A DNA stretch of 64,000 nucleotides from Myxococcota bacterium. GTDB taxonomy: Bacteria > Myxococcota_A > SURF-8 > G963663525. Shown in pieces: positions 17,056-46,759 of this stretch. The translations under genes and the position numbers were made by a program. The notes beneath the pieces were generated by a model that worked only from the letters and a program-made list of their open reading frames with translations, did not search any database and was not told where the DNA came from. The stretch lies in NCBI GenBank assembly GCA_963676915.2, contig CAXXVK010000072.1, positions 190,359 to 254,358 of the forward strand. Direction: 5' to 3'. Numbering within the stretch: the stretch's first letter is position 1; each line of letters starts with the position of its first letter.

Positions 17056-20000
17056 GTGCACGACCTGGAGAAAACTCGATCCCAGCTGATCGAAGAACTT
17101 CAAGCCGCCCATCGGAGAATCGCCGAGTTGGAAGCTCATATCTCCCCTTTCGAGGAAACAGATAAACGAAATTTGTCGGCTGGCAAGGTTGAACACCTTA
17201 ATGCTGTGCTTCGCGCTATTCGTAACGTCAACCAGTTGATTGTACAAGAGGAATCACCCGATCATCTGATTCGTAACGCCTGCAATTGTCTTACGGAAAC
17301 GCTTGGATATTACAATACGTGGATGGTTCGATTCGATCCGGTTGGGAACGTCATTTCCATGGCTCATTCGAACGTAGGCGAAGAATATTCACAGCTTGAA
17401 AAGAATATTTTGCATGGCGATTGGCCGGATTGCGCGAGAAAAGCATTTTCTCGCGAAGGTATCGTCATTACCAAAAATCCTGAAACCTCTTGTAAAAACT
17501 GCAACTTGTCTTCGCATTATCAACACAGAACAGGATATTGCGCGGCCCTTCGTTACGATGGAAAAACTTTCGGTCTTTTATCCGTTTCGGTGCCGGGACG
17601 TTTTGCCGAGGATGAGGAGGAACAATCTCTATTCAAAGAACTGGCCGACGATCTGGCTTTTGCTTTGTACCGCATCGATTTGGAAGAGAAAAACCGTCGG
17701 GACGAACCCAGGCTTCGGACACTGTTCGAACAAGCCGCGGATGCTATTTATATCTGCACGCCGGAAGGTAAATTTCTGGAAGTCAACGAGAGAGCTTGCA
17801 TACAGAGCGGGTATTCCAAAGATGAACTCCTTGAAATAAATGTTGTAGATCTGGATGCACGGATCGATGCTCCTTACAAATTGGCTGAATTCACTCAATC
17901 TCTAACAACCAGTTATCCAGTTACATTACAGTCCAGGCATCGCCGCAAAGATGGTTCGATCTATCCTGTGGAAATCACTATCTCAAGGATAGAAACTCCC
18001 GATGGAGATCAGGTTTTGGCAATCGCTCGCGATGTGTCCGACAGGAACGAGGCGATTCAAGCCTATCAAGAAAGCGAAGAGCGATTCCGTACCGTGATCG
18101 AGAATCTCCCGGTAGCCTTGTTTGCCCACGATATGGACGGAAACCTCGTGCTGGTCAACAAAACGGCTTGTCAAAGCACAGGTTATTCCTGTGAAGAAAT
18201 GTTGAACAAAAAGGTACATGATCTCGACCCGGCAAGTGTGGAACGTAAAGACAAAGAGCTGTATTGGCGCACTTCCGGATGAGTGGAAACCCACGGTTAT
18301 CGAATCCAGGCAAGTATGCAAAGATGGAACATCCTTTCCCGTTGAAATCCACCTAAACGCGATTCGTTTGGATGGAAAGCCTTTGATTTTAGGGATTGCT
18401 TTCAATATTTCCGAACGGAAGCGTCTGGAAACAGAACGTGCAAACCGCGAGTTGTTCCTGAGTCGATTGATCGATCAAAGTCCCTTTGCTACCTGGATTG
18501 CGGATGAAAAAGGAACACTCATTCAAGCGAATCCGGCAATAAAACGATTTCTCAACCTTACCGACGAACAATTGGTAGGGAAATACAATATTTTCGAAGA
18601 CCCTCAATTGAAGGAACAAGGGATTTCTCATTTAGTAGAGAGCGTTTTCACGAAAGGAGAAACCGTTCATTTCGAGATAACGTGGAATGGTGAGTTTATC
18701 GACAAACAAAAGTTTGCAGGTTCACGAACCGTTCATATCGACGCAACGATGTACCCCGTTTTCGACTCTGCTGGTCAATTGACGCATGCGGTAGTTCAAT
18801 GGGTCGAAATCACCGACAGAAAAAATGTCGAAAGGGCTTTAAAGGCGGCTCTGCACGAGCAAGAAGCCATTTTCGAGAGCAGCATGGTAGGAATCATGGT
18901 GCTTCACCATGATCGGATCATTACCAAGGTGAATCGTCGAATGGCGGATATGCTGGGGTACACGCAAGAAGAGATGACGAATGTCAGCCCAAGGCCGTTC
19001 CATGTTTCTCACGAGCATTACGTTGATTTTGGCAAATCGTATTATTGGCGGCTCGCCGAAAAAGAGCAGGTACAAATCGAATTTCCGTTTCGTCATAAAA
19101 ATGGCAATACGGTGTGGTGTTTGTTCAGTGGCAAGGCTTTCGCTCCTCCCGATTTGAAAAAAGGCGTTGTATGGGTGATCGACGACATCACCGAACGTAA
19201 ACGGATGCAGGACGAGTTAATCAAAAGGAATTCGGCAGCGAAACAAGCTGAAATTCTTGCAGAAACCGGTTATTTCGAGCGGAACTGGCTGACGGGAAGA
19301 GGGTATTGGTCCGATGGTTTTTGCCGTTTGCTCGGTCTCGATCCGGGGAACGTTCTCAATCATGATGACTTCATGGTTTTTATCCACGACGATGATCGGC
19401 AACGAACGGCAGATCATATCCAAGATTGTTTGGCTCATCATCAACCGATGGATGTGGAATTTCGCATCGTGCAAAAGCACGGAAAGATTCTGGATATTCA
19501 CGGGATCGGAGAAACGGAATACGACGAAAAAGGACGCCCCTGGAAAACCCGAGGAACGTTCCAGAACATATCGAAGCGAAAAGGGGAAGAGGAAAAGCGC
19601 AAGAAGCTAGAGGAACAGCTTCGGCAATCGCAGAAAATGGAATCCATCGGAAGACTTGCCGGTGGAATTGCTCATGATTTCAATAACTTGCTTACGGGTA
19701 TCTCGGGAAATATCTCTTTGGCGCTAATGGATCTTGACATCGACGATCCTGTGGTGGAGATGCTGGAAGAGATCGACCATGCTTCGCAGAGCGCAGCGGA
19801 TCTGACGCGCCAGCTATTGGCCTTTTCCCGCAAGCAGATCATCAAGCCGAAAAATCTCGATCTCAACAAGCAGATCGATACCATGCACAGGATGCTGGTA
19901 CGGCTGATCGGTGAAGATATCGAACTGAAAACGATATTCGGGTCCGATGTGGGAACGATTAAAGCCGATCCGGGGCAATTGGAACAGATTCTTATCAATC

Positions 20001-20791
20001 TGGCCGTCAATGCTCGTGACGCGATGCCCAAAGGCGGTAAAATGATCATTGAAACCGCCAATGCTTCTTTGGATCTGAAATATTGCATGATGAATCCGGA
20101 TGTTGAGCCGGGTTCTTACGTCATGTTCGCGATTTCAGATACCGGAGAAGGAATGGACGAAGACACACTTGCGAAAGTTTTCGATCCGTTTTTTACAACC
20201 AAACAGGAAGGTGAAGGCACCGGTTTGGGGTTGGCTACCGTGTATGGAATCATCAAGCAACACAACGGACATATCAGGGCGTATTCGGAAATAGGGCAGG
20301 GCACGACGTTTAGAGTCTATTTCCCAAGAGTGCTGGAACATGCAGAGGATTTCGTCCGGCAAACGTCTGCGGGGGATTTGCCCAAGGGAACGGAAACAGT
20401 TCTTGTGGTCGAAGATGAAACGATGGTGCGGAAAATTGCACTGAAAATTCTGAAACGACAGGGATATGAAGTGCTTGAAGCGGATTGTGGCGCAAATGCT
20501 TTGACGTTGGTAGAAAAGACCTCCAAGCACATCGATTTATTGATGACGGATATCGTGATGCCGAAAATGAACGGTCGTGAGTTGGCCGAAAAACTGTGCA
20601 AGCGGCTTCCCGACCTGAAAGTCCTGTTTACCTCCGGGTATACCGAGAACGTCATCGCCCATCATGGTGTGTTGGAAAAGGGACTCCATTTTATAGGAAA
20701 ACCCTATACGCCTTTGGCTTTGGCCAAAAAAGTACGTCACGTATTGGATCAGGAAAAAAATAGGGAAATCTGCAATAAAAAGAAAAAGTGA
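17056..20791 (+). CDS. Hybrid sensor histidine kinase (GAF, multiple PAS, HisKA, HATPase, REC); frameshift near 18270
   Basis: GAF domain and repeated PAS motifs (KDGS.YPVEI); GIAHDFNNLL, NLAVNARDAM, FFTTK..GTGLGL; REC with VEDE and TDIVMP. The two ORFs join inside a PAS domain. Confidence 0.9.
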
Positions 20792-20836
20792 TCAACGTTC
20801 CTTCTACGGTTTGGCTTTCCCCAAAAGAGCAATCCC

Positions 20837-21577
20837 TTACCCTTTCAGGATGATAGCCGTTCCCGCGAACAAAAGAACGATATAAACCGCTGTTCGAAAA
20901 TTTCGTTCGGGCAGGCGGTTGTGGACAGCTTCGCCGAGTAAAATCCCGATGAGCAGAGCGGGAAGCAGTTTCATGCTCAACAGCGAGGTTTCCTGGTCGA
21001 TTCGTCCCGCTGCCAGATGTCCGACGAACAGCACGATGTTCAAAATCAACCATACGGCGGCCAGAGTACTGCGGAAACGTCCCTTGGTCACGAGGGAACG
21101 GCTGGCCCAATAGGCGACCAACGGCCCGCCGGAAACCCACAATCCCTGGGCAACTCCTCCGCCGACCAGCCAAAGCCACGAGGCGTCTTCTTCGGGTGTT
21201 TCCTGGGTGGTTCTGGAAGCTTTATAGATGCGCCATAGCTCGAAACCTGCAAGAAACAGGACGAAAACGCCGAAAAGAGGCTTCATCCAATCGGCGTTGG
21301 CATGTTCGAATAGCCAGATTCCGAGCGGCATTCCGAGCATGGACAGGGGCAAAATTTGTTTCAAAAGGCGTTTGAAATCGATTCCTTGTCGATGGCGTCC
21401 GACGAGATAGATGCAGATGACGAGGTTTAGCGGGACAATCACCGGAACCAGCAGTGAAAGGGGAAAGAACAACAGGCCGAAGGTCAGCGAAAGGATGGCG
21501 CTGCCGAATCCCACTGCCGTACCGACCATGTATCCCACCGTAATCACGATGAAGAGAAAAAGATCTTCCAGTCCCAT
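20837..21577 (-). CDS. TauE/SafE-family (sulfite exporter-like) membrane protein
   Basis: Hydrophobic; GTAVGFG and a repeated G...SGGP motif. Last gene of the GRE operon. Confidence 0.8.
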   Translation of the reverse strand: MGLEDLFLFIVITVGYMVGTAVGFGSAILSLTFGLLFFPLSLLVPVIVPLNLVICIYLVGRHRQGIDFKRLLKQILPLSMLGMPLGIWLFEHANADWMKPLFGVFVLFLAGFELWRIYKASRTTQETPEEDASWLWLVGGGVAQGLWVSGGPLVAYWASRSLVTKGRFRSTLAAVWLILNIVLFVGHLAAGRIDQETSLLSMKLLPALLIGILLGEAVHNRLPERNFRTAVYIVLLFAGTAIILKG

Positions 21578-21590
21578 TTGTGCCGTTCTT

Positions 21591-22433
21591 TCAACCCGAA
21601 ACACGGGCGGCGGCTCCTCGCGAAAGGAGCAGCACACCCGAAACGATAACCAGCATCAATACCACTTGGACGACGACAGGATATAGACCGTAGACGGTGA
21701 CTTCAAGAAAAAGCGGCGTGAGAATCGTGGCTGAATTCACGGCGGAAACAACCTCGATGGCTCGGCTTTTCAAAAAGCCGAACTGTGTGACGACGGTGGC
21801 GGTGGCGGCGAAGAGAAGGGCGATGTATGGAAACGGATTGCTCAGTTGTCCCACGAAATCGCCCCCGGCTTCCACCAATGCGATGTCTGCCAGAAACAAG
21901 GCCAGACCGATGAGCATCCCGGCCATGGAACCATAGGCCAATCCGTGCATTTTGGGCCAGAAACGTGACACGTAGCAACAAACCACACCACCGGCAACCA
22001 GTGTGACGACCGCCGTTACCAAGCGCCATGTGGTGAATTTTCGTATCGATTCACCATGCTCCCCGCCGAGATAGGCCAACAGTGAGGTTCCCACCACCAC
22101 AAGAGCGATTCCCAAAAAATCTTCGCGTCCGAAACGTTCTCCGATCACGTACACGGCGTACAGTCCCAGGCCGATCAGTCCCACGCCCGTCATGGCCGAC
22201 ACCGCCGAAGGAGATTGCGACAGCTTCAGGCCCAGAGAAAACGGTATGGTGGCGCTGGCGGTCATGGCAAACCCCAGAATCCAGAGAATGAGTTTTCCCC
22301 GGTACGGAGGGTGGAACATTTCCCGCCAGTGGCTAAAGACATGCACAAACTGTTTTTGCACGCCTTTGCCGACGTTCATCAGCAAGGCGGCAAGCATTCC
22401 CAGCGCGAGACCGAGGATAAAAAGGTCGTTCAT
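21591..22433 (-). CDS. DMT-superfamily (NIPA/EamA-like) membrane transporter
   Basis: About 9 TM segments; N.GK..QK in TM1 and GERF after TM4. Confidence 0.65.
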   Translation of the reverse strand: MNDLFILGLALGMLAALLMNVGKGVQKQFVHVFSHWREMFHPPYRGKLILWILGFAMTASATIPFSLGLKLSQSPSAVSAMTGVGLIGLGLYAVYVIGERFGREDFLGIALVVVGTSLLAYLGGEHGESIRKFTTWRLVTAVVTLVAGGVVCCYVSRFWPKMHGLAYGSMAGMLIGLALFLADIALVEAGGDFVGQLSNPFPYIALLFAATATVVTQFGFLKSRAIEVVSAVNSATILTPLFLEVTVYGLYPVVVQVVLMLVIVSGVLLLSRGAAARVSG

Positions 22434-22461
22434 TATAGCTTCCGTTTCGGTCCTGCCGGAG

Positions 22462-23664
22462 TTACATCATTTTCGACGCTTCAAGCATCAATGTGTCATT
22501 CGTACCGTCCATGATGGTTAGCAAGGGTGCGTCTCTTGCATATTTTTCGAGCTTGTAATCCTTGGCGATGCCGTAGCCTCCCAGAACCTGAACCATGGTG
22601 TTGGTATGTTTTACGGCAAGATCCGTCGTGTAGACTTTCCCCGTTACGCTGGTGAGCAAGTCTCCGGGGAAGGCGTTTTCGCAATGCCAGCTTCCTTTCC
22701 ACAACAGCGTTCGTGCCGATTCGATGGCGGCACGGCAATCGAAAAACTTTTTGGTGACAAGCTGATGCTCGAAAATCGGTTTGCCCCACTGTACGCGCTC
22801 TTTGGCGTAGGAAAGCGCTTCCTCGTAGGCGGCGCGCATCAATCCCACGGCCAGATAGCCGGTGCCCAGGTTGCCCACCGTCATGATGGAGCGATGCAGG
22901 AAGGGATAGGCGTCTCCCGGAGGAAACAGCAGATGATCCTCTGGAATCTCCACGTCATCAAGGTATACAGGAGCTTGATTCAAGGCCCGCAATCCCATGC
23001 GGTCCTCGGCTTTGCCTTTCGTCAGTCCGTCGGCGTCACCGGGAACGATAAATGCCCCGGACCCCAACAGTCCCTTCGCAGGCTCGACGCAGGCGAAGAC
23101 GATGTAATTCTTGGCGATTCCACCGTTGCTGATAAAGTTCGACTTCACGCCGTTGAGAATCCAGCGGTCCCCTTTTTTTACGGCTGTGGTGCGATGGCGA
23201 ACCGTAGGATCGAAGTAGTTTTTCCCGTCCGAACCTACGTTCGGTTCACTGCTGCCCCAGGCCGTCACGGCTTGCCCGGTTTCGTCTTCGCAATAGGGAC
23301 GGACGTATGTATCGACGAGAGGTTTGTTGGTGGAGGCAAGAAACGCCACCAGTGCAGGCACTACGGAAGACGCCATCAGCGACGCCGTAAAGCCGACGCC
23401 GTAACGGGCCAGTTCTTCCCATACCAATGCCGTTGTGGTCGCGCCCAAACCCAGACCGCCGAATTCCTCTTTGATGCCCATCTTGTGAAATCCGAGGGCA
23501 AATGCCTGTGCCATGGCTTTCTTAAACGTTTCCGTTTCGAAAATCGCTTGGGCGTCGGACATTTTATCCAGTTCGATTTCCGCCGGTTCCAGCACGTTTT
23601 TGCCGAAATCGCGTGCAGTTTGCACGAATTGTTCCTGGATGTCGGAGATTTTGAAATCGATCAT
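22462..23664 (-). CDS. Acyl-CoA dehydrogenase family protein
   Basis: SEPNVGSD, W.LNG.K..FISNG, RMGLR, ERVQWGKPI, QVLGGYG and IMDGTND. Confidence 0.92.
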   Translation of the reverse strand: MIDFKISDIQEQFVQTARDFGKNVLEPAEIELDKMSDAQAIFETETFKKAMAQAFALGFHKMGIKEEFGGLGLGATTTALVWEELARYGVGFTASLMASSVVPALVAFLASTNKPLVDTYVRPYCEDETGQAVTAWGSSEPNVGSDGKNYFDPTVRHRTTAVKKGDRWILNGVKSNFISNGGIAKNYIVFACVEPAKGLLGSGAFIVPGDADGLTKGKAEDRMGLRALNQAPVYLDDVEIPEDHLLFPPGDAYPFLHRSIMTVGNLGTGYLAVGLMRAAYEEALSYAKERVQWGKPIFEHQLVTKKFFDCRAAIESARTLLWKGSWHCENAFPGDLLTSVTGKVYTTDLAVKHTNTMVQVLGGYGIAKDYKLEKYARDAPLLTIMDGTNDTLMLEASKMM

Positions 23665-24437
23665 TATTCTCCCCGCTTTCCGGCAAAGAAATCGGTCATT
23701 TTGAAATAATGCGGCAAAAAGGCTTCGCCATCGACTTCCTGGAGAATCGTTCCGGGAAGCATGGTGTTGTGGCTGACGATGTGGAAGGCCAACATCACGT
23801 TAAGACCGTCGAGTTCGTACCACGGGTCGGTTTCGGATTTCTGGAACGTCACTTCAGCCGTGCCGACTTCGCAACTTACGAGATCGAGATCGGTTTTTTG
23901 GGAGGCGAGATATACGGGGCCGTCGAATCCCGGTTGAAGATCGATGCGCGGCATTCCCTTGAAGAGATACGTTGGTCCGGTGGGGGGCAGTTGGGGCAGA
24001 GTGGCGTTCAGTTCCCCTTTGACCTCCACGAAGCGTACGCCGTTGCGTTCCACCCAGCCGTGAAGTCGGTTGCCGTCTTTTTCGTAGTGAATCGACGCCA
24101 TTTTTTTGGGAAAACCGAAGATGTCCCGGCCGTTGTAATTGCGCGCTTCGTTGTCGATGGGCATCGACAGGCAGTATGCGCCGGGTTCGCCTTTGTATTT
24201 GCAGCGAATGAAAAGCGCCGCTTCGTGGTATCCCGGCCCGAGGTTGGTTTCAGGGTATTCGGCGATGAAGATCAGCCCGCCGGGCATATCGGCCTGTTCC
24301 AGAGGCGCCGGTAAAAGCGGTGCTGTGGTTTCGGCAGGTGAGCCGAACATTACGCCCATCATTTTCGCGTTTTCGAAACGTCGCACGCCTAATGCATAGT
24401 AGCTATCCAGTTCTTCCGGTGTTTTTACAAATCCCAT
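23664..24437 (-). CDS. Acetoacetate decarboxylase (ADC) superfamily protein
   Basis: YHEAAL and GRDIFGFPKK (Schiff-base lysine motif). Stop and start overlap with the ACAD gene. Confidence 0.85.
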   Translation of the reverse strand: MGFVKTPEELDSYYALGVRRFENAKMMGVMFGSPAETTAPLLPAPLEQADMPGGLIFIAEYPETNLGPGYHEAALFIRCKYKGEPGAYCLSMPIDNEARNYNGRDIFGFPKKMASIHYEKDGNRLHGWVERNGVRFVEVKGELNATLPQLPPTGPTYLFKGMPRIDLQPGFDGPVYLASQKTDLDLVSCEVGTAEVTFQKSETDPWYELDGLNVMLAFHIVSHNTMLPGTILQEVDGEAFLPHYFKMTDFFAGKRGE

Positions 24438-24467
24438 GATTTCCTCCTGTTAGGTGTCCTATGTGAA

Positions 24468-25313
24468 TCAAGAAAATTTCTTGTACAAACCCAATTCGGA
24501 TGATTGGGCTTTCAAAATTGCGCCTTCAACGAGTCCCGGCGATAGCCGATAGGCCAGCCATCCCGCTACGCCCGAAGCGGTCATGATCAAGCGCCGTTTG
24601 CGTTTTTCGATCATGTCGAGGATTTTTGCGGCGGCCTGTGCCTGCGTGTGGTGGGCTGGACGATCGGGCAGCACCAACGATCCGTCGGCCGCGAGAATGC
24701 GTTTTTCCGGGTCGTGTTCGGTAAATCCGAGGTGCGCCACGCCGAAGTGCACGCCGTCATCCATCATTTCCAGCCGTAGAGATTCGCACAAACCCGTCAG
24801 GGCGGCTTTTCCTGCGCAGTAGGTGGAAGCGCCCGGCAGTCCGAACAGCCCGGCGATGCTGGAGACGAACACCACGCTGCCTTTGGTTTGGCGAAGATCG
24901 TCGATGGCGGCGCGGGTCGGGTAGATGCAGCCCATCAGATTGGTTTGAATGGTCTGTGAACAGACTTCGGGAGACAGCTCGTAAAATTTCCCCCGCATGG
25001 AGACACCCGCATTGTTAACGAGAATGTCCACCGGTCCGAAATGCTTTTGCGCCGTTTCGACCATATGCAGAGCATCTTCCCACTTGCCGACATCTCCCGT
25101 GACCGCTTCGACGTTGGGGTTGATTTTTCGCAGCTTTTCCAGCGAATCCATCAGGCGCTTTTCGCCTCGTGCGGAAATGACGACGTTGGCTCCCCGTTCT
25201 GCGAGCGCTCGGGCGACCGCCAGACCGACACCTCGGCTGGCTCCGGTTATCAGTGCCGTTTTTCCCGTAAACCGGGTTTGCACGATGGGCATGCTTTCGT
25301 TCTCGTTCGGCAT
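24468..25313 (-). CDS. Short-chain dehydrogenase/reductase
   Basis: TGASRGVG, NNAG, SSIAG and YCAGK (YxxxK). Confidence 0.93.
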   Translation of the reverse strand: MPNENESMPIVQTRFTGKTALITGASRGVGLAVARALAERGANVVISARGEKRLMDSLEKLRKINPNVEAVTGDVGKWEDALHMVETAQKHFGPVDILVNNAGVSMRGKFYELSPEVCSQTIQTNLMGCIYPTRAAIDDLRQTKGSVVFVSSIAGLFGLPGASTYCAGKAALTGLCESLRLEMMDDGVHFGVAHLGFTEHDPEKRILAADGSLVLPDRPAHHTQAQAAAKILDMIEKRKRRLIMTASGVAGWLAYRLSPGLVEGAILKAQSSELGLYKKFS

Positions 25314-25418
25314 GGTTTGGTTCCTTTACTTCCAGTCGTTTCAAAAGCGATGAAGGATTGACGTTGGTTCCGTTCCTTTAAAAATCTTTCATTTCACGAA
25401 GATTCGCTCCAAATCCCG

Positions 25419-28031
25419 CTACAAGGCTTCATGCTCGGTTCGGGCGATGATTTCGTCCTGGATTTCCCGTCCAAGATCCACGAAATACGTGCTGTATCCC
25501 CCCACCTTGACGATCAAATCACGATGCCGCTCCGGGTGTTCTTTCGCTTCTTTGAGCGTTTCTGAAGAAATGCAGGTCGGCTGAAGCTGTGCCCCACCAA
25601 GCTTGAAATACGTACGGATCAGGTCGGCCCATTTTTTTCGTGCTTCCTGCGATTCTCCGATGGAACTGGGATGAAATTTCATGTTGACGGCACAGCCGAG
25701 CACGTCTTCGAACGGCAGAGATGCCACCGAGCGAAGAGCCGCCGTGGCTCCGCAACGTTCTACGTTGTAGGGATTGCAGCTTGCCGCATAAGGTACGGCT
25801 GCTTTTCGACCGTCTGCTCCGGCCATCGACAACCGACCATCGATGGTGTGGGTGATCATGCTGATGATATAGACCACGAACGGTCCGTTACGTGTGGTGC
25901 GATAATCGTAGGTGATATCGAAAAGCCCTTTGCAGACTTTTGCCGCCAGTGCATCCGTTTCTTCGTGACCGTTGCCCCATTTTCCCGGCAATTTTTCAAT
26001 GCTTCGGAGTAAGTCTGCATCGTCCATGAACGAACGATCTACCGCTTCGAGCAACCGACGCATCGTGCAGGTTTTCTGTTCGTAGATCAGTTTTTGAATG
26101 ACATAGAGCGAATCGATCAGGTTCGCCACGGAGTTGATCATCGAAATCCCGGCGAGGTCGTATGTCGCTCCGCCCTGGGTCACGTCTTTTCTCGATTCCA
26201 GGCAACCATCCATGAAGGCCGAAATCTGTGGTGCGGGGAGGTATTTGGCGAACAGGTCGTCCCGCAGGTTGGAAGCCCGTACGATTTTGTCGATGAAAAA
26301 TTTTGCCTGCTGGAAAAAAGCCTCCAAAAACGTGTCGAAATCGTCAAAAGTGTCCGGATCTCCCGTTTTCAGTCCTTCTCCCCGGATTGTTCCCGCCAGG
26401 ATCGCCGAATCCCCATTGCGCATGGTAATGTCCAGCAGACGCGCCAGTTGTAAGGCGTTGGCGCTCATGCTGCCGGTTTTTCCCGGACATATTCCCTCGA
26501 CACAGCCCATGATGGCGTAGTCCCGTGCATCTTCTTCCTTGAAGTCTCGGCGCTTCATGGCCTCGACCATCGTTTCGTCGTTGAACAGCGAGAAGCTGGA
26601 TGTCCCCTGTTGCAGAAAGGAAGCCACGTCGAGCAGGAGGTCATCGGGCGTTGCGTCGTGGACGCGCAACGAAATGTTGGTGATGGCTTTGGACTTGTGC
26701 GCCGCTTCGAGAAACAGCCGGGTCAACTCGTTGGTGGCATCGCGGCCTTCTGCATCGACGCCGCCGAGGGTCACGGGCGAAGATCCCAAGAAGCGATGGT
26801 AGAAATGACCCAAAATGTTCGATTCAGGTCGAATGTTTTGCGACATGATCTTTAAAAGGAGTTCTTCTAAAAGATCCAATGCTTCTTCGCGGGAAATTTC
26901 GCCTGTTTCGAGATCCTTCCGGTAGTACTCGATAAGATCCTGATCCAGACGTCCGAAACAGTGCAGGTTTACCGGGTGGGCCAGTTCCACTGCGGTTTTG
27001 ATCGTCCACAGCGCCTGTACCGCTTCACGAAAATTCCGGGCTGGATGTAGAGGCGCATGGCCGCAGATCGCAGCCATCTGTTGCAATTCCCACTTTCGTT
27101 CTCCATCAGGCTCGTTTTTGGCTTCACGCTCGATTTTTTCGGCAAGTCTGCCGGCAAACACCGCCACGCCTTCTAGGGCGACGAGTTGAGATTCGAGAAT
27201 TTCCTTTTCTTCACGCTCCAGATGTTGCGAATCCAGCTCGGCCCGGATGTTTTCCATCATTCCTACAAGACCGAGCTTCAGTGGGGTTCGGTAGTCGAGA
27301 ATGACATGGCCCTGATAGGTCGCGATGGTCGCGCAGGTGGAAATCATCTGGACTTGTCGAGACGTATTTCCCGGAAGCGCTACGGCGAAATCGTGCATGT
27401 CTTTCGAGTAGAGTCCTGATTTCAGCGTCTCTTCTTCCAGTCGATCGACGACGGTTCGACCTTTCCAATAGGGAAGTAACCGTTTTAGTAGTTCATCCCG
27501 GTCGTTTTTTTTGATCCGATAGGGGTTGATGTCCCTCTCGGACATGGTTTTGAGTTCCATGTTGAGAGGTTGAGCGCCTGCGTGGCGGACGATTTTCTGA
27601 TTGCGGATGAAATCCCCGAGTACGCCTTTACCCAGCATGTAACGGAACGCTTTGGCCATCGATCCCAGACGAAAGCGCAGCATCGAAGAACGGGTCAATT
27701 CGGACTCGAACACCTGGTTGAACACGCCGCGTTCGATATCGATGGGAATACCCAGAAAAAATTCCGTCCAGGTTCCCGCTATGCGCTCTTCACGGTCGAG
27801 GTAGATGGTTACGTTTTCATATACATGTTTCAATGCGCGAGCGACACGAAGCGCCTGGGTTACGTCCTGACCTTCTTGCGCCTGCCATCCTTGGGTGAAA
27901 TAGCGGGCGCGTTCCACCGAAATCATGGCGTCCCCGGATTGATACCGTTGCTTCATGCTTCGGATGCGGTCCCGTCGTGTTTCCGAAGTTTTTACGCGCT
28001 CTACCGTTTCCCTTCCGGCGAACGTTTCCAT
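25419..28031 (-). CDS. Glycyl radical enzyme (PFL2/eliminase-like), function unknown
   Basis: ERAR N-terminus, GRLDQ, Cys loop IMGCVEG and Gly-radical loop IVKVGGYSTYF...QDEIIART. Confidence 0.92.
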   Translation of the reverse strand: METFAGRETVERVKTSETRRDRIRSMKQRYQSGDAMISVERARYFTQGWQAQEGQDVTQALRVARALKHVYENVTIYLDREERIAGTWTEFFLGIPIDIERGVFNQVFESELTRSSMLRFRLGSMAKAFRYMLGKGVLGDFIRNQKIVRHAGAQPLNMELKTMSERDINPYRIKKNDRDELLKRLLPYWKGRTVVDRLEEETLKSGLYSKDMHDFAVALPGNTSRQVQMISTCATIATYQGHVILDYRTPLKLGLVGMMENIRAELDSQHLEREEKEILESQLVALEGVAVFAGRLAEKIEREAKNEPDGERKWELQQMAAICGHAPLHPARNFREAVQALWTIKTAVELAHPVNLHCFGRLDQDLIEYYRKDLETGEISREEALDLLEELLLKIMSQNIRPESNILGHFYHRFLGSSPVTLGGVDAEGRDATNELTRLFLEAAHKSKAITNISLRVHDATPDDLLLDVASFLQQGTSSFSLFNDETMVEAMKRRDFKEEDARDYAIMGCVEGICPGKTGSMSANALQLARLLDITMRNGDSAILAGTIRGEGLKTGDPDTFDDFDTFLEAFFQQAKFFIDKIVRASNLRDDLFAKYLPAPQISAFMDGCLESRKDVTQGGATYDLAGISMINSVANLIDSLYVIQKLIYEQKTCTMRRLLEAVDRSFMDDADLLRSIEKLPGKWGNGHEETDALAAKVCKGLFDITYDYRTTRNGPFVVYIISMITHTIDGRLSMAGADGRKAAVPYAASCNPYNVERCGATAALRSVASLPFEDVLGCAVNMKFHPSSIGESQEARKKWADLIRTYFKLGGAQLQPTCISSETLKEAKEHPERHRDLIVKVGGYSTYFVDLGREIQDEIIARTEHEAL

Positions 28032-28054
28032 GCGTCCATCCTTTCCGGTGTCGT

Positions 28055-28663
28055 TCAGGGCGCTTCACCCTCTACCGAATCCAACAATGTCGAAGCCATC
28101 CATTTCAGGTGTTGTTTGCGCCGAACGATCGATTCGTCCGACATCGGGTCGTCGCCAAGCAGTTGGCTGATAAGCTCTCCGTAAGTGAAATAGCTGATGA
28201 TGGCTCCGTAAAAACTGATCAGCAGGTGTTCGGCGGCGGCTTCGCCTTGTTGAGTTTTCGGATACACGTCTTTCAGCGTTTGGATGCCCATCGAAAAAAT
28301 CGGTGCCATGTGCCCGGCGATGCGTTCCATGTGAGCACCCCCGGCGGCTTCACGCTGGACGATCCGCCCGAAATTCCGGTTTTCCACCAGAAATTCGATG
28401 TAAACGTCTATCAAAGACAACAGGCGCGTTTTGATATCTCCGTCTTGGGTCAGCGCTTTGGCGAGTTTTCCTCCAAGCTTGCTGTAATAGCGATCCAGCA
28501 GCTCGGTCAGCAGTCCTTGTTTGCTTTGAAAATGGTAGTGGATTAGTGCTTTATTTACACCCGATTTTTCGGCAATTTCCCGTGTAGTTGCCGCATCGAA
28601 ACCGACGGTGCCGAACAACTCATCCGCTGCCGACAGAATTCGTTCTTTCGCGTTTTTATTCAT
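28055..28663 (-). CDS. TetR/AcrR-family transcriptional regulator
   Basis: HTH motif RILSAADELF...GFDAATTREIAEKSGVNKALIHYHF.SK. Confidence 0.93.
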   Translation of the reverse strand: MNKNAKERILSAADELFGTVGFDAATTREIAEKSGVNKALIHYHFQSKQGLLTELLDRYYSKLGGKLAKALTQDGDIKTRLLSLIDVYIEFLVENRNFGRIVQREAAGGAHMERIAGHMAPIFSMGIQTLKDVYPKTQQGEAAAEHLLISFYGAIISYFTYGELISQLLGDDPMSDESIVRRKQHLKWMASTLLDSVEGEAP

Positions 28664-28684
28664 ATTGTAACGTTTCTTCGCTTT

Positions 28685-28733
28685 TTTAACCAACCGGCCA
28701 GTTAAATTGTAGTTCGTTTCTTTTTTTTGTCAA
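28685..28733 (-). promoter_or_regulatory. Sigma-70 promoter with adjacent palindromic operator for the tetR-GRE operon
   Basis: Minus strand TTGACA-N16-TACAAT (28733-28706). Palindrome TTTAAC-caaCCGGcca-GTTAAA at 28685-28706 covers the likely transcription start. Confidence 0.65.
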
Positions 28734-28894
28734 ATATTTCGTTTTTTTGTTGAAAAATAAGAAAGAGAAATACCCCTACGAGCTTCAGTTTTCGGGCACA
28801 TGTCCCCTAATGAGCAATCGCTCGAAAGCGTGCTCTGAAAATGCTCAAACAAACGTATTTTACCGAAACTTAGGCCAAAAAGAGGGGGAGTGGA

Positions 28895-30313
28895 TTACTC
28901 CTGCCATCCTCCGTCGAACCAACCTAGGGACTCCATGGCCGTCCATGTGCTCGGATCGCCAAAACTTCCCAAACCCATTTTGTACTCGTAATTTACAAGT
29001 TTATCTACTGGGTCGTTTTCTACGGATTCGTGGTCGATGATGTAGCCGACATCGTCGTTACCAAGCCCCACGATGAATTTATGCGGGCTGACCATTTTCT
29101 CCTTCAGGCGCAGGCTGAATTCAGGGGTGGATTCTCCTGGAAACGAAGCGAATTCCGCCGGGCCCAGTTTGTGCCAACTGACTTCCAGTTCTTTGACGAT
29201 CAGTCCTTCTTCCGGGTCGTCGATGAAAGTGCGAAACGGAATTCCGGCATAGTTGACGAGATCGTCGAAAAAGCCATCCGTTGCTGAAGAATAAACAGCC
29301 CAGCGGTGACGAATATCGAACTCTTCTGCTTTGGAAGGCGTTTCGATGGCCTCCATTGCGGCATCCGCGAGAAGTTTTCCCATGTTGTAGGCGCGTTCGT
29401 ATTCATCGCCTCCGGGAACGTCGGGAGATAGCGGTCCATCGTGCACGGCGGCGGAAAAACCTTGTAAAAACATGGCAGGTGCGCCGGTGCGTTCTTCGAT
29501 TTCCTCACGATACCCCCAAATATAATCCGCCGAAACGAGGTTGTCGGCCCAGGGAAGTTGGGTAGGATGCTTGGCGAAATTGGTCAGTGTCAAAACGACT
29601 TCGTCCGAGGTGTTTTTGGCCTGCATCACGGTAACGGAATCATCGAGGATCTCCGAGCACCCCTCGTCCCTGCCGGTGTAGCCGACGAGTTCACTTTTTC
29701 CGAAATACAACTCTGTTTCATCCATCGAATTAGCGGCATCGACGGCGGCTTGCGTGATGCGTTCCACATGCCATTCCAGAAATTCCTTGGGAATGGCTTG
29801 GTTGACATCTTGGAAGATGCCCACAAGATCCGGTGTTGTATGGCTGTGGCTGGAACCGAGTAAAATGTGTTGCGGTTCCAGCGAGATTTTGGGAGAGATC
29901 GCCTCAACGATGGATTCCCGAAGGGATTTGACTCCCGGCCCTTCGGCGCCGAAATCAAAATAATACCCGGCGGAGTCCATGCCGATTAGAACAAATGCCT
30001 GTCCTGCATCGTTTTGGAAAATCGCCACCTGCGCTCGCAGCCGGTCGTTGATCCCCACGCAATCTCGATGGATGCTGGGAGTACCGTATCCGCCGAGGAG
30101 TGTCCCGATTTCCGGTGTAATGTCCGCTTCTCCGTATCCCAGGTAAAATCGTGTGGCCGTAGTGGCTACTTCCTCTTCTTGTTCCTGCTCCTGCTCCGTA
30201 TCGCCACCATCGTTGGAGGGGTTGGAGTTTTCGTCTTCCGTACAGAAGGTCAGCGTAACCAACAACGGGAGCAGAAGAAATGGCAGCAAGCGCAATTGCG
30301 AAGAACGGATCAT
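28895..30313 (-). CDS. Neutral/alkaline ceramidase-like exported hydrolase
   Basis: DITP...LGGYG, D.L.A, SHSHTTPD, N.AKHPT, SADY, FPGE and GLGND..GY. Signal peptide with Cys and an acidic linker. Confidence 0.72.
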   Translation of the reverse strand: MIRSSQLRLLPFLLLPLLVTLTFCTEDENSNPSNDGGDTEQEQEQEEEVATTATRFYLGYGEADITPEIGTLLGGYGTPSIHRDCVGINDRLRAQVAIFQNDAGQAFVLIGMDSAGYYFDFGAEGPGVKSLRESIVEAISPKISLEPQHILLGSSHSHTTPDLVGIFQDVNQAIPKEFLEWHVERITQAAVDAANSMDETELYFGKSELVGYTGRDEGCSEILDDSVTVMQAKNTSDEVVLTLTNFAKHPTQLPWADNLVSADYIWGYREEIEERTGAPAMFLQGFSAAVHDGPLSPDVPGGDEYERAYNMGKLLADAAMEAIETPSKAEEFDIRHRWAVYSSATDGFFDDLVNYAGIPFRTFIDDPEEGLIVKELEVSWHKLGPAEFASFPGESTPEFSLRLKEKMVSPHKFIVGLGNDDVGYIIDHESVENDPVDKLVNYEYKMGLGSFGDPSTWTAMESLGWFDGGWQE

Positions 30314-44222: not shown

Positions 44223-45896
44223 TCATTGGGTTAAGATTTCGGATAGCACCCTTCCTTCATTCAGCGTCGGCGGCAGAACGCGGGTGAGAAAGGCAATGGT
44301 AGGAGCAATATCCACCGCTTCGGCCGGTGTGGAATACACTCCCGGACGAATGCCTTGTCCGGCGAACATCAAAGGCACCGTAGCGTCGTAGGTGTAGCCC
44401 GTTATGTGTGTCGTTTCGTAGGCTTCATCGATGACATAAGGTTTAGGAATTGCGACGACATCTCCGCTACGACCTGGAAAATACGAATGACGGATCTGAC
44501 GTTCCCACATCAAACTCGGCAGGCGGTTTTTCAAGACATCGGAAGCGCTGAAAGCAAACAGAACGTTCTTGTTTCGAAGCAGAATGCGTTTGAGATCGTT
44601 TTCCAGATCTTCGATACTTATTCCTTTGGATATGGTGGCTTCTTTGTTGAGGAAGAAATTGAAATCTTTGGAATACACGATCCACTCCCCATTCTCCGGG
44701 ATGCCGTGCAAAGTCTGCAAGGAGTTTTCGGCGTCTTGCTGGAGTTTCTTTTCGTCTAGCACTGCCGCTTCGAAGCCTTTCGATTTCAGGTATTTGGGGG
44801 TTGGAGCCACACCGTGATCTCCTGTCAGAACCACGAGGACATTGTCCAGTCCACCGGGAACCGATCGATCGATTTCGGTAAACAGTTCGGACAACATGAC
44901 ATCCAGGTGGAAGGTCAATGCTTCCATTTCGCAACGATTCGGACCGATATCGTGCCCAAGATAGTCGTGGACGGAGAAACTCACCGCGAGGAGGTCTGTT
45001 GCCTCACGATTGCCCAATTCGTAGGATTTCAAGGCTTCCAGAGCGGCTTTTTGGGTCAACTCATTGCCGGCAGGTCCGAAAAGCGCTTCTTTGCCATTGC
45101 TCTTATAGGTTTTCGAAAAGCTGGCCGTTCCGTCGTCGGAATATTCGCAGAGCACGGATTCGTTGCTCCAGTGGTGGGTTTCTCCACGATGCTTGTCTAG
45201 ATCGGCGTTTTGACGCGCCACCCATGAGGGAAGGGCACCCTCCGGGCAGTACAAACGGCTCGACACCCAGTGAAACGTTTTTTTGTCGAACCATATGGCG
45301 GCGTCGGCGCGGGTTCCACCCATCAGAATTGCGGCCCGGTCCTTAATCGAAATCGATACGACTCGGCTTTTTCCTCCAGCGTTTTTCAGTTCATCGCCAA
45401 TGGTCGAACCCAGCAGGTTCAGCGGTCCGGTACCGACGTTCGGCCCTTCGCCTGTCGTTCCTACGAGAGAAAAACGTTCGTCTCCGACAGCGTACATGGG
45501 ACTGCGGTTTTCCGCATCATACCATTTGTTGAGAGGAATCCCGCTCCGATAGGGATACGCTCCGCTTGCCAGTGTGGCATGACCCGGTCCGGTCATGGCC
45601 TGCATGACATCGTGTCGAGCGAAAGGATAATACGCACCTTGTTCCATAAGGTAGCGGAATCCACCAGGTTTGCCGTCGAGACTTCTTGCCGGGAGAAAGT
45701 GTTCCCTGTATCGTAACAGGTAATCGGCGCGGAACTGATCGACCACCAGCAATACAATCAGCCGTGGGGAGGAAAGAAAGCTATCTTCGTTGGTTTCCGT
45801 TTTCGTACAAGAGATACTGCTCAGCACCGCCAGAAACAGTAACAAGCCAAAAGTGAAAAAAGATGTTCTTTGGTGCTTTTTTGGGTGAATTTTCAT
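44223..45896 (-). CDS. Alkaline phosphatase superfamily lipoprotein (PafA/PhoK-like, Thr nucleophile)
   Basis: VVDQFR.D, TGPGHAT, S.KDRAAI, D.LGH, TGDHG and HITGY.YD. Confidence 0.88.
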   Translation of the reverse strand: MKIHPKKHQRTSFFTFGLLLFLAVLSSISCTKTETNEDSFLSSPRLIVLLVVDQFRADYLLRYREHFLPARSLDGKPGGFRYLMEQGAYYPFARHDVMQAMTGPGHATLASGAYPYRSGIPLNKWYDAENRSPMYAVGDERFSLVGTTGEGPNVGTGPLNLLGSTIGDELKNAGGKSRVVSISIKDRAAILMGGTRADAAIWFDKKTFHWVSSRLYCPEGALPSWVARQNADLDKHRGETHHWSNESVLCEYSDDGTASFSKTYKSNGKEALFGPAGNELTQKAALEALKSYELGNREATDLLAVSFSVHDYLGHDIGPNRCEMEALTFHLDVMLSELFTEIDRSVPGGLDNVLVVLTGDHGVAPTPKYLKSKGFEAAVLDEKKLQQDAENSLQTLHGIPENGEWIVYSKDFNFFLNKEATISKGISIEDLENDLKRILLRNKNVLFAFSASDVLKNRLPSLMWERQIRHSYFPGRSGDVVAIPKPYVIDEAYETTHITGYTYDATVPLMFAGQGIRPGVYSTPAEAVDIAPTIAFLTRVLPPTLNEGRVLSEILTQ

Positions 45897-46015
45897 ACTA
45901 TTTCTCCATACCCAATGGAGTCTGGAATCAAATGGTTTTCAATTCGCTATTCTCAACGATGGCGAATATATTTGTCATTAGAAAACAGCTAAAACTGTAG
46001 ATGAGGTTTCGTTGT

Positions 46016-46759
46016 TTATTCCAATTCAATGCGGTTCATGCAGGCCAGATAGGCTGGACAACCTTCCCGCTCCAGGCATTCCATCTCGGGATCATTCGGA
46101 GTGATTCCGTTGCCGACGTGTCGGCTGCACCGTTGCAGGCAGGTCAGGTCGTCCATTTCGTCGAGATCCGAGCGGCATTCGCTTTCTCGGTGGCAGAGAT
46201 CCCGGCAGAGTTGAACGTGAACGGCTTCCTGGTTTTCCAGAGGCGGCGAGACGGAAATATACCATTTGGAAGGTATACCGATGAGATCATTGCTTGTTGC
46301 CAGGAAAAACTGAACCAAGTAAAGCTGGTCGGAGAAATCTACGTTCGAGGAAAAGAAGCCGGACAATGGCACCAAGATTTGCCCGTCCACGTAAGGAATC
46401 GGTTCGACAGGAATAGACGCTATACCTTCGGCTCCCTGCACGGCAACAAATACGTGGGTAATGCGTTCGGGAAACACGAAATCGCTGACCAACACCACTT
46501 CGAAAGGCTGGTCGGGAGTTAGACGTTCGGGAAAGAAAATGTCGGTGATTTGAGGGGCGTAGAAGCTGTTTGAACCGGTAGGGACTGACCTTTCGATGCA
46601 GTCCGTATTCTCGAAACCGAAAGCGCGCAAAAACTCGGTTTCGAGCGTTTCATCTTCGCCGATTTCAAGAAGATCACTGTCGACGCAAGACAAAACAAAA
46701 CACCACATTCCCAGAAGAAAACATTGTACGATCGTTTTTGACAGGGAAAAACGGTGCAT
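46016..46759 (-). CDS. Hypothetical lipoprotein with Cys-rich C-terminus
   Basis: Lipobox VLSC; C-terminal CxxxCxxxxxC...CxxxC...C pattern. Confidence 0.55.
   Translation of the reverse strand: MHRFSLSKTIVQCFLLGMWCFVLSCVDSDLLEIGEDETLETEFLRAFGFENTDCIERSVPTGSNSFYAPQITDIFFPERLTPDQPFEVVLVSDFVFPERITHVFVAVQGAEGIASIPVEPIPYVDGQILVPLSGFFSSNVDFSDQLYLVQFFLATSNDLIGIPSKWYISVSPPLENQEAVHVQLCRDLCHRESECRSDLDEMDDLTCLQRCSRHVGNGITPNDPEMECLEREGCPAYLACMNRIELE

Follow-up and report, generated by a model that had tools for sequence, protein, structure and literature searches.

A TetR-headed glycyl radical enzyme operon of an uncharacterised clade in a Myxococcota genome, with its putative activase encoded on another contig

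Glycyl radical enzymes (GREs) carry out chemically hard anaerobic reactions, and each clade assigned so far has brought a new pathway to light (choline, hydroxyproline, isethionate, anhydro-sugars). The closest described counterparts of the enzyme considered here are the B12-independent glycerol dehydratase and the GRE 1,2-propanediol dehydratase. In the 2026 review of the GRE superfamily, where the Cys-x-Glu (CxE) motif is defined, the glutamate of this motif is the base and, in glycerol dehydratase, His164 is the acid for the leaving hydroxyl. Here we analyse a GRE operon in a 64,000-nucleotide stretch of a Myxococcota genome (assembly GCA_963676915.2, contig CAXXVK010000072.1, forward-strand positions 190,359 to 254,358), referred to below as the window. 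A sequence-only reading of this stretch had proposed seven co-directional genes behind one promoter; the coordinates and Pfam domains of all seven, on the minus strand, match that description (Table 1). In 5' to 3' order they are tetR, the GRE gene, and genes for a classical short-chain dehydrogenase/reductase (SDR), a protein of the acetoacetate decarboxylase (ADC) fold, a flavoprotein of the acyl-CoA dehydrogenase (ACAD) fold, a DMT-like membrane protein and a TauE-like permease. We read them as a catabolic operon under TetR repression, in which the GRE would act as a new 1,2-eliminase or isomerase that cleaves C-O bonds and is activated in trans; to this reading we give a probability of about 0.55.

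A GRE clade apart from the characterised families

The proposal that the window GRE lies outside the characterised families is borne out by every comparison made. No solved GRE shares more than 28% identity with it, its best solved relatives reach about 320 bits, and its scores against the NCBIfam equivalog models are all far below cut-off, with HpsG the top-scoring model (415.8 bits against a cut-off of 1000) and HypD and CutC at 384.6 against 1100 and 348.5 against 1050, respectively. The score against the broader PFL2-3 subfamily model TIGR01774 is likewise short of its cut-off (437.8 against 678.2). An AF2 model built from a 34-row alignment (pLDDT 87.1, pTM 0.89) is closest in fold to glycerol dehydratase 1r8w (TM 0.83, 26% identity), with the propanediol dehydratases next (glycerol and propanediol dehydratases together TM 0.81-0.83, 26-28% identity) and HypD, CutC, HpsG, IslA and the isomerases after them (23-27% identity).

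A search of 5.8 billion proteins, from which 8000 candidates were scored, gave at least 542 relatives, the best 120 of which are 59-82% identical to the window GRE and carry generic names only. All but one of these 120 entered the family alignment, a 919-residue sequence being excluded for its length, and 209 of the 870 GRE positions are at least 97% conserved across the 119 members. Residues 90-155 form a conserved helical insertion specific to the clade, about 65 residues long and rich in basic and hydrophobic residues, with no aligned counterpart in the solved dehydratases. By its sequence the window GRE belongs to an uncharacterised clade of CxE-type GREs. In the GRE literature searched, which for papers from 2025 on means the top 30 of 207, no description of this clade or of its partner set was found; a paper on a limonene GRE concerns a fumarate-adding enzyme, and a preprint on Asgard microcompartments is unrelated.

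The catalytic loops are intact. The CxE cysteine loop noticed at the outset is present as G509-C510-V511-E512, and the glycine loop as K842-V-G-G-Y-S (842-847). Across the 119 aligned members, C510 is found in all and V511 is likewise invariant, E512 is Glu in 116 and Asp in three, and H242, which aligns with His164 of glycerol dehydratase, is kept in every sequence; the glycine loop as a whole is at least nearly invariant, its Gly, Tyr and Ser fully so, and Lys842 stands in place of Arg in 119 of 119.

With this triad of Cys, Glu and His kept, and glycerol and propanediol dehydratases as the best matches in both sequence and fold, one could suppose an ordinary small-diol dehydratase acting on glycerol or 1,2-propanediol, with the SDR handling the aldehyde. 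The remaining polar residues argue otherwise. Glycerol dehydratase H281-S282 corresponds to N355-L356 and W445-H446-D447 to M522-S523-A524, and these replacements are themselves conserved in the clade. We take H281, S282 and D447 to have diol-binding roles in glycerol dehydratase, so that of its polar diol-binding set only the His164 equivalent is kept and the equivalents of H281, S282 and D447 are replaced. Together with the low identity, the PFL2-3 score, the helical insertion and the lack of microcompartment genes and of a CoA-acylating aldehyde dehydrogenase, this makes a small-diol dehydratase distinctly improbable; the substrate may exceed glycerol and propanediol in size and hydrophobicity.

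A second possibility, raised by the sequence-only reading, is that the GRE acts as a sulfonate C-S lyase and that TauE exports the sulfite set free. It would account for the TauE/SafE-family gene at the end of the operon and for HpsG being the top equivalog, albeit at well under half of its cut-off score. The 2026 review gives Arg183, Gln187 and Arg672 as the sulfonate anchors of HpsG. Gln187 is matched by Gln240, but the other two of the three anchors are absent, Arg183 being replaced by Ile236 (Ile in 101 of 119, with Arg never among the top three residues) and Arg672 by Tyr721 (Tyr in 115 of 119). The TauE gene itself accompanies the GRE in only two of the 25 loci described below (L021 and L038) and in two near relatives (G001, which is congeneric, and G005). 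A C-S lyase is accordingly very unlikely and sulfite export with it; to judge from these residues, the substrate is not a sulfonate.

Conserved neighbours and partners encoded elsewhere

What, then, travels with this enzyme? A neighbourhood scan that took one genome per species gave 25 loci with GRE identities of 55-73%, five of which end at or just after the GRE. They span at least eight bacterial phyla and the Asgard archaea, with representatives in Myxococcota, Deltaproteobacteria, Planctomycetales, Phycisphaerae, Nitrospirales, Gemmatimonadota, Hydrogenedentota, Syntrophomonadaceae and Promethearchaeota. A radical-SAM activase lies directly 3' of the GRE in 15 of the 25, and an extended SDR is present in 18, being fused to the classical SDR in ten, encoded separately in seven and cut by a contig end in one. 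The classical SDR recurs in 17 loci and an adjacent ADC-ACAD pair in 12. The SDR, ADC and ACAD neighbours are therefore conserved with GRE homologs, and the enzyme does not cluster at high identity with any characterised GRE, so that neither of the grounds for refutation named by the sequence-only reading arose. Its statement that it knew of no characterised GRE with SDR, ADC and ACAD partners is likewise in line with the part of the 2026 review available to us, which lists none.

The remaining neighbours are less constant. TetR orthologs, 35-80% identical, adjoin the GRE in 12 of the 25 loci and in G001 and G005; the DMT-like gene occurs in four (L021, L024, L042, L044), again with G001 and G005. 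No further gene family recurs in more than a few of the 25 loci, and the extra neighbours at the Planctomycete-type, Nitrospirales and Asgard loci share no informative family. Individual loci hold genes of their own: a 508-residue protein with HMG-CoA-reductase N-terminal and URO-D-like domains between tetR and the GRE (L022:8414-9940 and L025:8331-9854), a 512-residue FAD_binding_4 protein after the GRE instead of activase and SDR in two Asgard loci (L033:12136-13674 and L034:3286-4824), and a FAD_binding_4/FAD-oxidase_C gene just upstream of tetR (L021:7582-9006). Closer to the window, four of 41 related genomes (G000, G001, G005 and G007) hold members of the GRE clade, at 67% identity or more, and the same four alone have the ADC-like gene. 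As the four carriers are kin and the genes are linked, this pattern indicates a patchily distributed cassette and not independent co-evolution.

In G005 and G007 (the latter being locus L021), both of the same order as the window genome, the layout is tetR-GRE-activase-extended SDR-SDR-ADC-ACAD-DMT-TauE. In the window and in G001 a stand-alone classical SDR follows directly after the GRE, and neither activase nor extended SDR is part of the operon, which has some 2 kb (activase plus extended-SDR domain) fewer than its counterparts in G005 and G007. The operon had been called self-contained and without an activase. The second part stands, in that no match to the GRE activase model TIGR02494 is found anywhere on the window contig, C72; the first does not, since an orthologous activase is encoded on contig C62 and an extended SDR on contig C49. 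The genome search for activating enzymes that the sequence-only reading recommended returned a sole intact TIGR02494 match, at C62:92786-93709 (324 bits against a cut-off of 174), among unrelated genes. Its best match in G005 and in G007 is the cluster-linked activase, and its G001 ortholog is 62% identical and lies 1.7 Mb from the G001 GRE. A maximum-likelihood tree built from 22 activases places the C62 sequence and its G001 ortholog within a clade of 16 cluster-linked activases (98/98), and four stand-alone activases of the same order outside it. Its phylogenetic position marks the C62 activase as a relocated ortholog of the activase that is GRE-adjacent in other lineages.

The extended-SDR homolog at C49:49930-50919 is 58% identical to the cluster-linked domains, which is the range among those domains themselves, and in both G005 and G007 it matches the cluster domain best. 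G005 has a further extended-SDR copy adjoining a paralogous GRE; a quick tree of extended SDRs was unresolved, and one of its rows (G001_C4) was a wrongly chosen reading frame. The C49 gene is followed by one for a START/SRPBCC (Polyketide_cyc) protein (C49:51028-51762), and a FadD11-like fatty-acid CoA ligase is encoded nearby at 44330-46279.

The genome encodes a second intact GRE on contig C4 (5704-8313; 869 residues, GCVE and RVSGYS loops, 36% identical to the window GRE). It has no adjacent activase, and its G005 ortholog is the one that adjoins the extended-SDR paralog; GRE plus extended SDR may be a recurring pairing. Further along the same contig (C4:40051-42868) lies a decayed GRE-activase pair, with PFL-like pieces in several frames, a short Gly_radical piece and activase pieces interrupted by a TAA stop.

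Could the window operon be a remnant of the same kind, non-functional after loss of the adjacent activase and extended-SDR domain? The missing 2 kb and the presence of a truly decayed pair in the same genome would fit. Between the window and G001, however, dN/dS is 0.05-0.16 for all seven operon genes at a dS of about 1; all seven are under purifying selection, and such low values between congeners indicate that the split arrangement is functional. All seven reading frames are intact, G001 shares the layout, both genomes keep an intact orthologous activase and an intact extended-SDR homolog at other sites, and promoter and operator are conserved. Decay is the least likely of the alternatives that we consider. 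Adjacency of GRE and activase is thus an unsafe criterion for calling a GRE an orphan, and identification of the unlinked, probably cognate activase supplies a component for reconstitution of the enzyme.

Promoter, operator and gene layout

The single promoter with an operator that had been proposed is present upstream of tetR. A sigma-70-type promoter (TTGACA-16 nt-TACAAT) agrees with the consensus at 11 of 12 positions, and the 20-nt imperfect palindrome TTAACTGGCCGGTTGGTTAA directly follows its -10 hexamer. Promoter-like sites are not abundant in this region: two, this one among them, were observed in the 8.6 kb of 20500-29100, against 4.9 expected in shuffles. The palindrome is unique in the 5.18-Mb assembly at up to four mismatches, and in G001, where the spacer has diverged, it is the sole conserved block and almost unchanged. 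Six of the 13 loci tested (L021, L022, L023, L025, L026 and L058) have related TAACTGGGCGnCCGGTTA sites no more than 260 nt upstream of tetR, the loose TAACTGGGCGnCCGGTTA pattern occurring 54 times in the 406,516 nt of all loci. The palindrome is thus kept in eight loci, the window included, and a TetR_N-domain protein with a palindrome at its own promoter has the features expected of an autoregulated repressor. Its top NCBIfam matches, all below cut-off, are RefZ, FasR, PsrA, BetI and FadR. The pair of promoter and operator offers a handle for finding the inducer, which is expected to be close to the substrate. None of the sequencing runs searched gave an RNA dataset matching the whole operon.

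The genes are mostly tightly spaced, with 5' to 3' intergenic gaps of 23, 105, 30, -1, 28 and 13 nt, the ADC stop and ACAD start sharing one nucleotide (TGATG). For tetR, the ATG at 28663 is a likelier start than the listed TTG at 28693 because the latter falls within the operator; for TauE, the ATG at 21577 is likelier than the listed start at 21637. The DMT-like protein has about nine hydrophobic segments. As the sequence-only reading had noted for the operon, microcompartment genes are lacking: a search of the assembly (90.8% complete) for shell genes (PF00936) found none.

Upstream of the operon lies a ceramidase-like gene, whose 472-residue product combines the N-terminal domain of neutral/alkaline ceramidases with a hydrophobic segment predicted at its N-terminus, with paralogs on contigs C14, C43 and C10. 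We considered it as a member of the operon and rejected it: a terminator-like hairpin lies 3' of the gene, and synteny is lacking in G001 and in every locus. A gene for a hybrid PAS histidine kinase/response regulator (857 residues, CckA-like kinase core) converges on the other end of the operon.

Table 1. Positions of the operon genes, regulatory sites and flanking genes in the window
Feature	Position	Strand	Basis
TetR-family repressor	28055..28663 (listed ORF to 28693)	-	TetR_N, 62.9 bits
Glycyl radical enzyme (GRE), 870 aa	25419..28031	-	PFL-like PF02901, 456 bits; Gly_radical PF01228, 78 bits
Classical SDR oxidoreductase, 281 aa	24468..25313	-	adh_short, 168 bits
ADC-fold protein, 257 aa	23664..24437	-	ADC PF06314, 148 bits
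ACAD-fold flavoprotein, 400 aa	22462..23664	-	Acyl-CoA_dh N, M and C domains
Polytopic membrane protein, weakly EamA/DMT-like	21591..22433	-	EamA, E 7e-4, below cut-off
TauE/SafE-family anion permease	20837..21577 (listed ORF start 21637)	-	PF01925, 99 bits
Sigma-70-type promoter	28706..28733	-	11/12 consensus matches
TetR operator candidate, 20-nt imperfect palindrome	28686..28705	.	abuts -10 hexamer
Ceramidase-like gene	28895..30313	-	ceramidase N-terminal domain
Hybrid PAS histidine kinase/response regulator	18218..20791	+	CckA-like kinase core

Partner enzymes, a proposed route and known systems

The classical SDR carries the TGxxxGxG and YxxxK motifs, passes model NF004825 (221 bits against a cut-off of 215) and matches 17-beta-HSD13 among solved structures. 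It is 75% identical to residues 345-615, the C-terminal half, of the 615-residue L021 fusion protein, in which an Epimerase/3-beta-HSD domain precedes adh_short. Over both of its halves this fusion matches PRK07201, a two-domain model (158 bits; cut-off 549). The curated models that the extended SDR matches best, all below cut-off, are those for HpnA (211-243 bits), the sterol demethylase SdmB (139-153 bits) and OleD.

These affinities raise the possibility that the cassette is biosynthetic and, under anoxia, remodels a lipid or metabolite of the cell itself. The GRE would then stand in for an oxygen-dependent step, and the two SDRs would correspond to the 3-beta-HSD/decarboxylase and ketoreductase pair of sterol C4-demethylation. 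The ADC-fold enzyme could in that case decarboxylate a beta-keto acid, and the lipid-binding-fold START/SRPBCC protein next to the C49 extended SDR, with the FadD11-like ligase near it, would be in keeping with such a role. The HpnA and SdmB scores are nevertheless under the respective cut-offs of 367 and 600, and the four cluster-bearing genomes (91-96% complete) yielded no squalene/oxidosqualene cyclase domain (PF13243), on which ground we rejected a hopanoid or sterol link. Two PNP_UDP_1 genes near the unlinked genes, tried as HpnG, proved to be ordinary uridine and purine nucleoside phosphorylases. TetR repression, the presence of permeases and a patchy, cassette-like distribution (four of 41 relatives) are together more typical of catabolism, and the CxE/His loop points to elimination and not to methyl activation. 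We regard a biosynthetic or remodelling role as unlikely, if the least so of the alternatives to a catabolic operon with a C-O-cleaving GRE.

The ADC-like protein is nearer to true ADCs than to other solved ADC-fold proteins, and an atlas search with it gave generic ADC clusters only. Its Lys-Lys pair (K111-K112) is kept in 13 of 14 aligned rows, the first Lys in all 14, as is Glu E72. At the position of the Arg in the N-R-E motif of solved ADCs it has A24, and none of 13 sequences has Arg there, Ala or Ser taking its place; in the numbering that we assume for true ADCs, the Glu and Arg are Glu76 and Arg29. The score against the true-ADC model PRK02265 is 56.6, short of the cut-off of 150.

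A beta-keto-acid route would make direct use of this enzyme: the GRE would eliminate a leaving group next to a 3-hydroxy acid (3,4-dihydroxybutyrate, 4-amino-3-hydroxybutyrate or carnitine-like compounds, for example), the ADC-like protein would decarboxylate the resulting 3-oxo acid and the SDR would reduce the product. The conserved Lys-Lys and Glu favour it, and in the 2026 review GRE eliminases set the new carbonyl on the carbinol carbon. The Ala or Ser at the Arg29 position and the PRK02265 score speak against it, however, as does the lack of the ADC-ACAD pair from several loci that keep the GRE and SDRs. It would also leave the ACAD and the extended SDR without a role, and no carboxylate- or ammonium-binding residues were identified. 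On balance we think it improbable, about on a par with a small-diol dehydratase or slightly ahead of it.

Over its whole length the ACAD can be aligned with butyryl-CoA dehydrogenase 1buc, its best PDB match (180 bits), and it scores far below the cut-off of every equivalog model (best AcrC, 204 against 640). The YEGT motif of 1buc, whose Glu is presumably the catalytic base, corresponds to M-D386-G-T, so that the catalytic Glu is replaced by Asp, as it is in 13 of 13 orthologs. The acyl-CoA oxidation that had been suggested for this enzyme is therefore uncertain, the more so as the conserved neighbours yielded no CoA ligase or transferase.

For a TetR-repressed catabolic operon with a C-O-cleaving GRE, we infer the following reaction type and order of steps. 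The C62 radical-SAM activase would activate the GRE in trans; the Cys510 thiyl radical would take hydrogen from the carbinol carbon, Glu512 would deprotonate its hydroxyl and His242 would protonate the vicinal oxygen leaving group, giving an aldehyde or ketone. The SDR, probably together with the C49 extended-SDR homolog, could then carry out NAD(P)-linked redox chemistry on this carbonyl product. The ADC-fold lysine enzyme and the translationally coupled Asp-type ACAD might serve as an accessory module, combining iminium or enamine chemistry with flavin dehydrogenation of a carbonyl intermediate, and the two permeases would transport substrate or product.

As to the class of substrate, we lean tentatively towards a bulky or hydrophobic hydroxylated compound, because the polar active-site residues are replaced, both SDRs have lipid-type affinities and the TetR protein matches the fatty-acid-sensing regulators FasR, PsrA and FadR. 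A more specific version, which we consider speculative and unlikely, is that the clade uses radical chemistry to cleave C-O bonds in bulky hydroxylated compounds that are lipid-like or ether-linked, for example long-chain vicinal diols, alkyl-glycerol ethers or aryl/alkyl beta-hydroxy ethers. In this version the two-domain SDR would disproportionate the aldehyde to alcohol and acyl thioester, and the ADC-fold lysine enzyme with the Asp-type ACAD would desaturate a free carbonyl compound via an enamine. If true, this would be oxygen-free cleavage of substrates beyond any known anaerobic enzyme, by way of an ADC-ACAD pairing without precedent.

Several points weigh against a catabolic C-O-cleaving operon as we have drawn it. 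The reaction type is read from motifs conserved at 24-28% identity to characterised enzymes, and the hints of a hydrophobic substrate are sub-threshold family matches or residue swaps in pairwise alignments, not features of a pocket model. The C49 extended SDR could be the partner either of the window GRE or of the paralogous C4 GRE. With no second operator copy anywhere in the genome, the unlinked activase and extended-SDR genes are not visibly co-regulated with the operon. Lack of the Arg29 equivalent means that decarboxylation by the ADC-like protein is not assured; Asp386 and the missing CoA ligase or transferase likewise make an acyl-CoA substrate for the ACAD uncertain. Finally, since ADC and ACAD are not within 10 kb of the GRE in L027, L028, L036 and L043 (Phycisphaerae, Planctomycetales and Nitrospirales labels), the core of the pathway may be GRE, activase and two SDRs alone.

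The clade is large, numbering over 100 clusters at 59% identity or higher. It is unusually conserved and comes from environmental metagenomes, recurring in uncultured anaerobes of at least eight bacterial phyla and in Asgard archaea. This breadth, together with a fixed partner set (two SDRs, an ADC-fold protein and an Asp-type ACAD) that corresponds to none of the GRE pathways described so far, suggests an unrecognised and widespread anaerobic conversion in environmental communities.

Among known systems, the sulfonate C-S lyases HpsG, IslA and IseG are CxE eliminase-type GREs like the window enzyme, which lacks two of their three anchor residues; some sulfonate pathways use TauE-type exporters. 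The extended-plus-classical SDR fusion of the relatives is that of PRK07201-type two-domain SDRs, an architecture that includes alcohol-forming fatty acyl-CoA reductases; the window operon holds the classical half, and the extended half is on C49. The ADC-like protein shares its fold family and its conserved Lys-Lys and Glu with acetoacetate decarboxylase (3bgt, 3bh2) but reaches only 45 bits to 3bgt, has Ala or Ser for Arg29 and is always paired with an ACAD-fold gene. With butyryl-CoA dehydrogenase-type ACADs (1buc) the window ACAD has the full three-domain fold in common, and its best matches are short-chain ACADs of anaerobes, from which it differs by Asp for the catalytic Glu; nitroalkane oxidase is an ACAD-fold enzyme with Asp as base. 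Nearest to the GRE itself are the B12-independent glycerol dehydratase and the GRE 1,2-propanediol dehydratase (1r8w, 5i2g and 9rco), with which it shares the ten-stranded-barrel fold, the Cys-x-Glu loop, the aligned His and the C-terminal glycine loop. From these the window clade is set apart by Lys for Arg before the radical glycine, by the insertion at 90-155 and the replaced polar residues, by its lack of microcompartment association and by its unprecedented SDR, ADC and ACAD partners.

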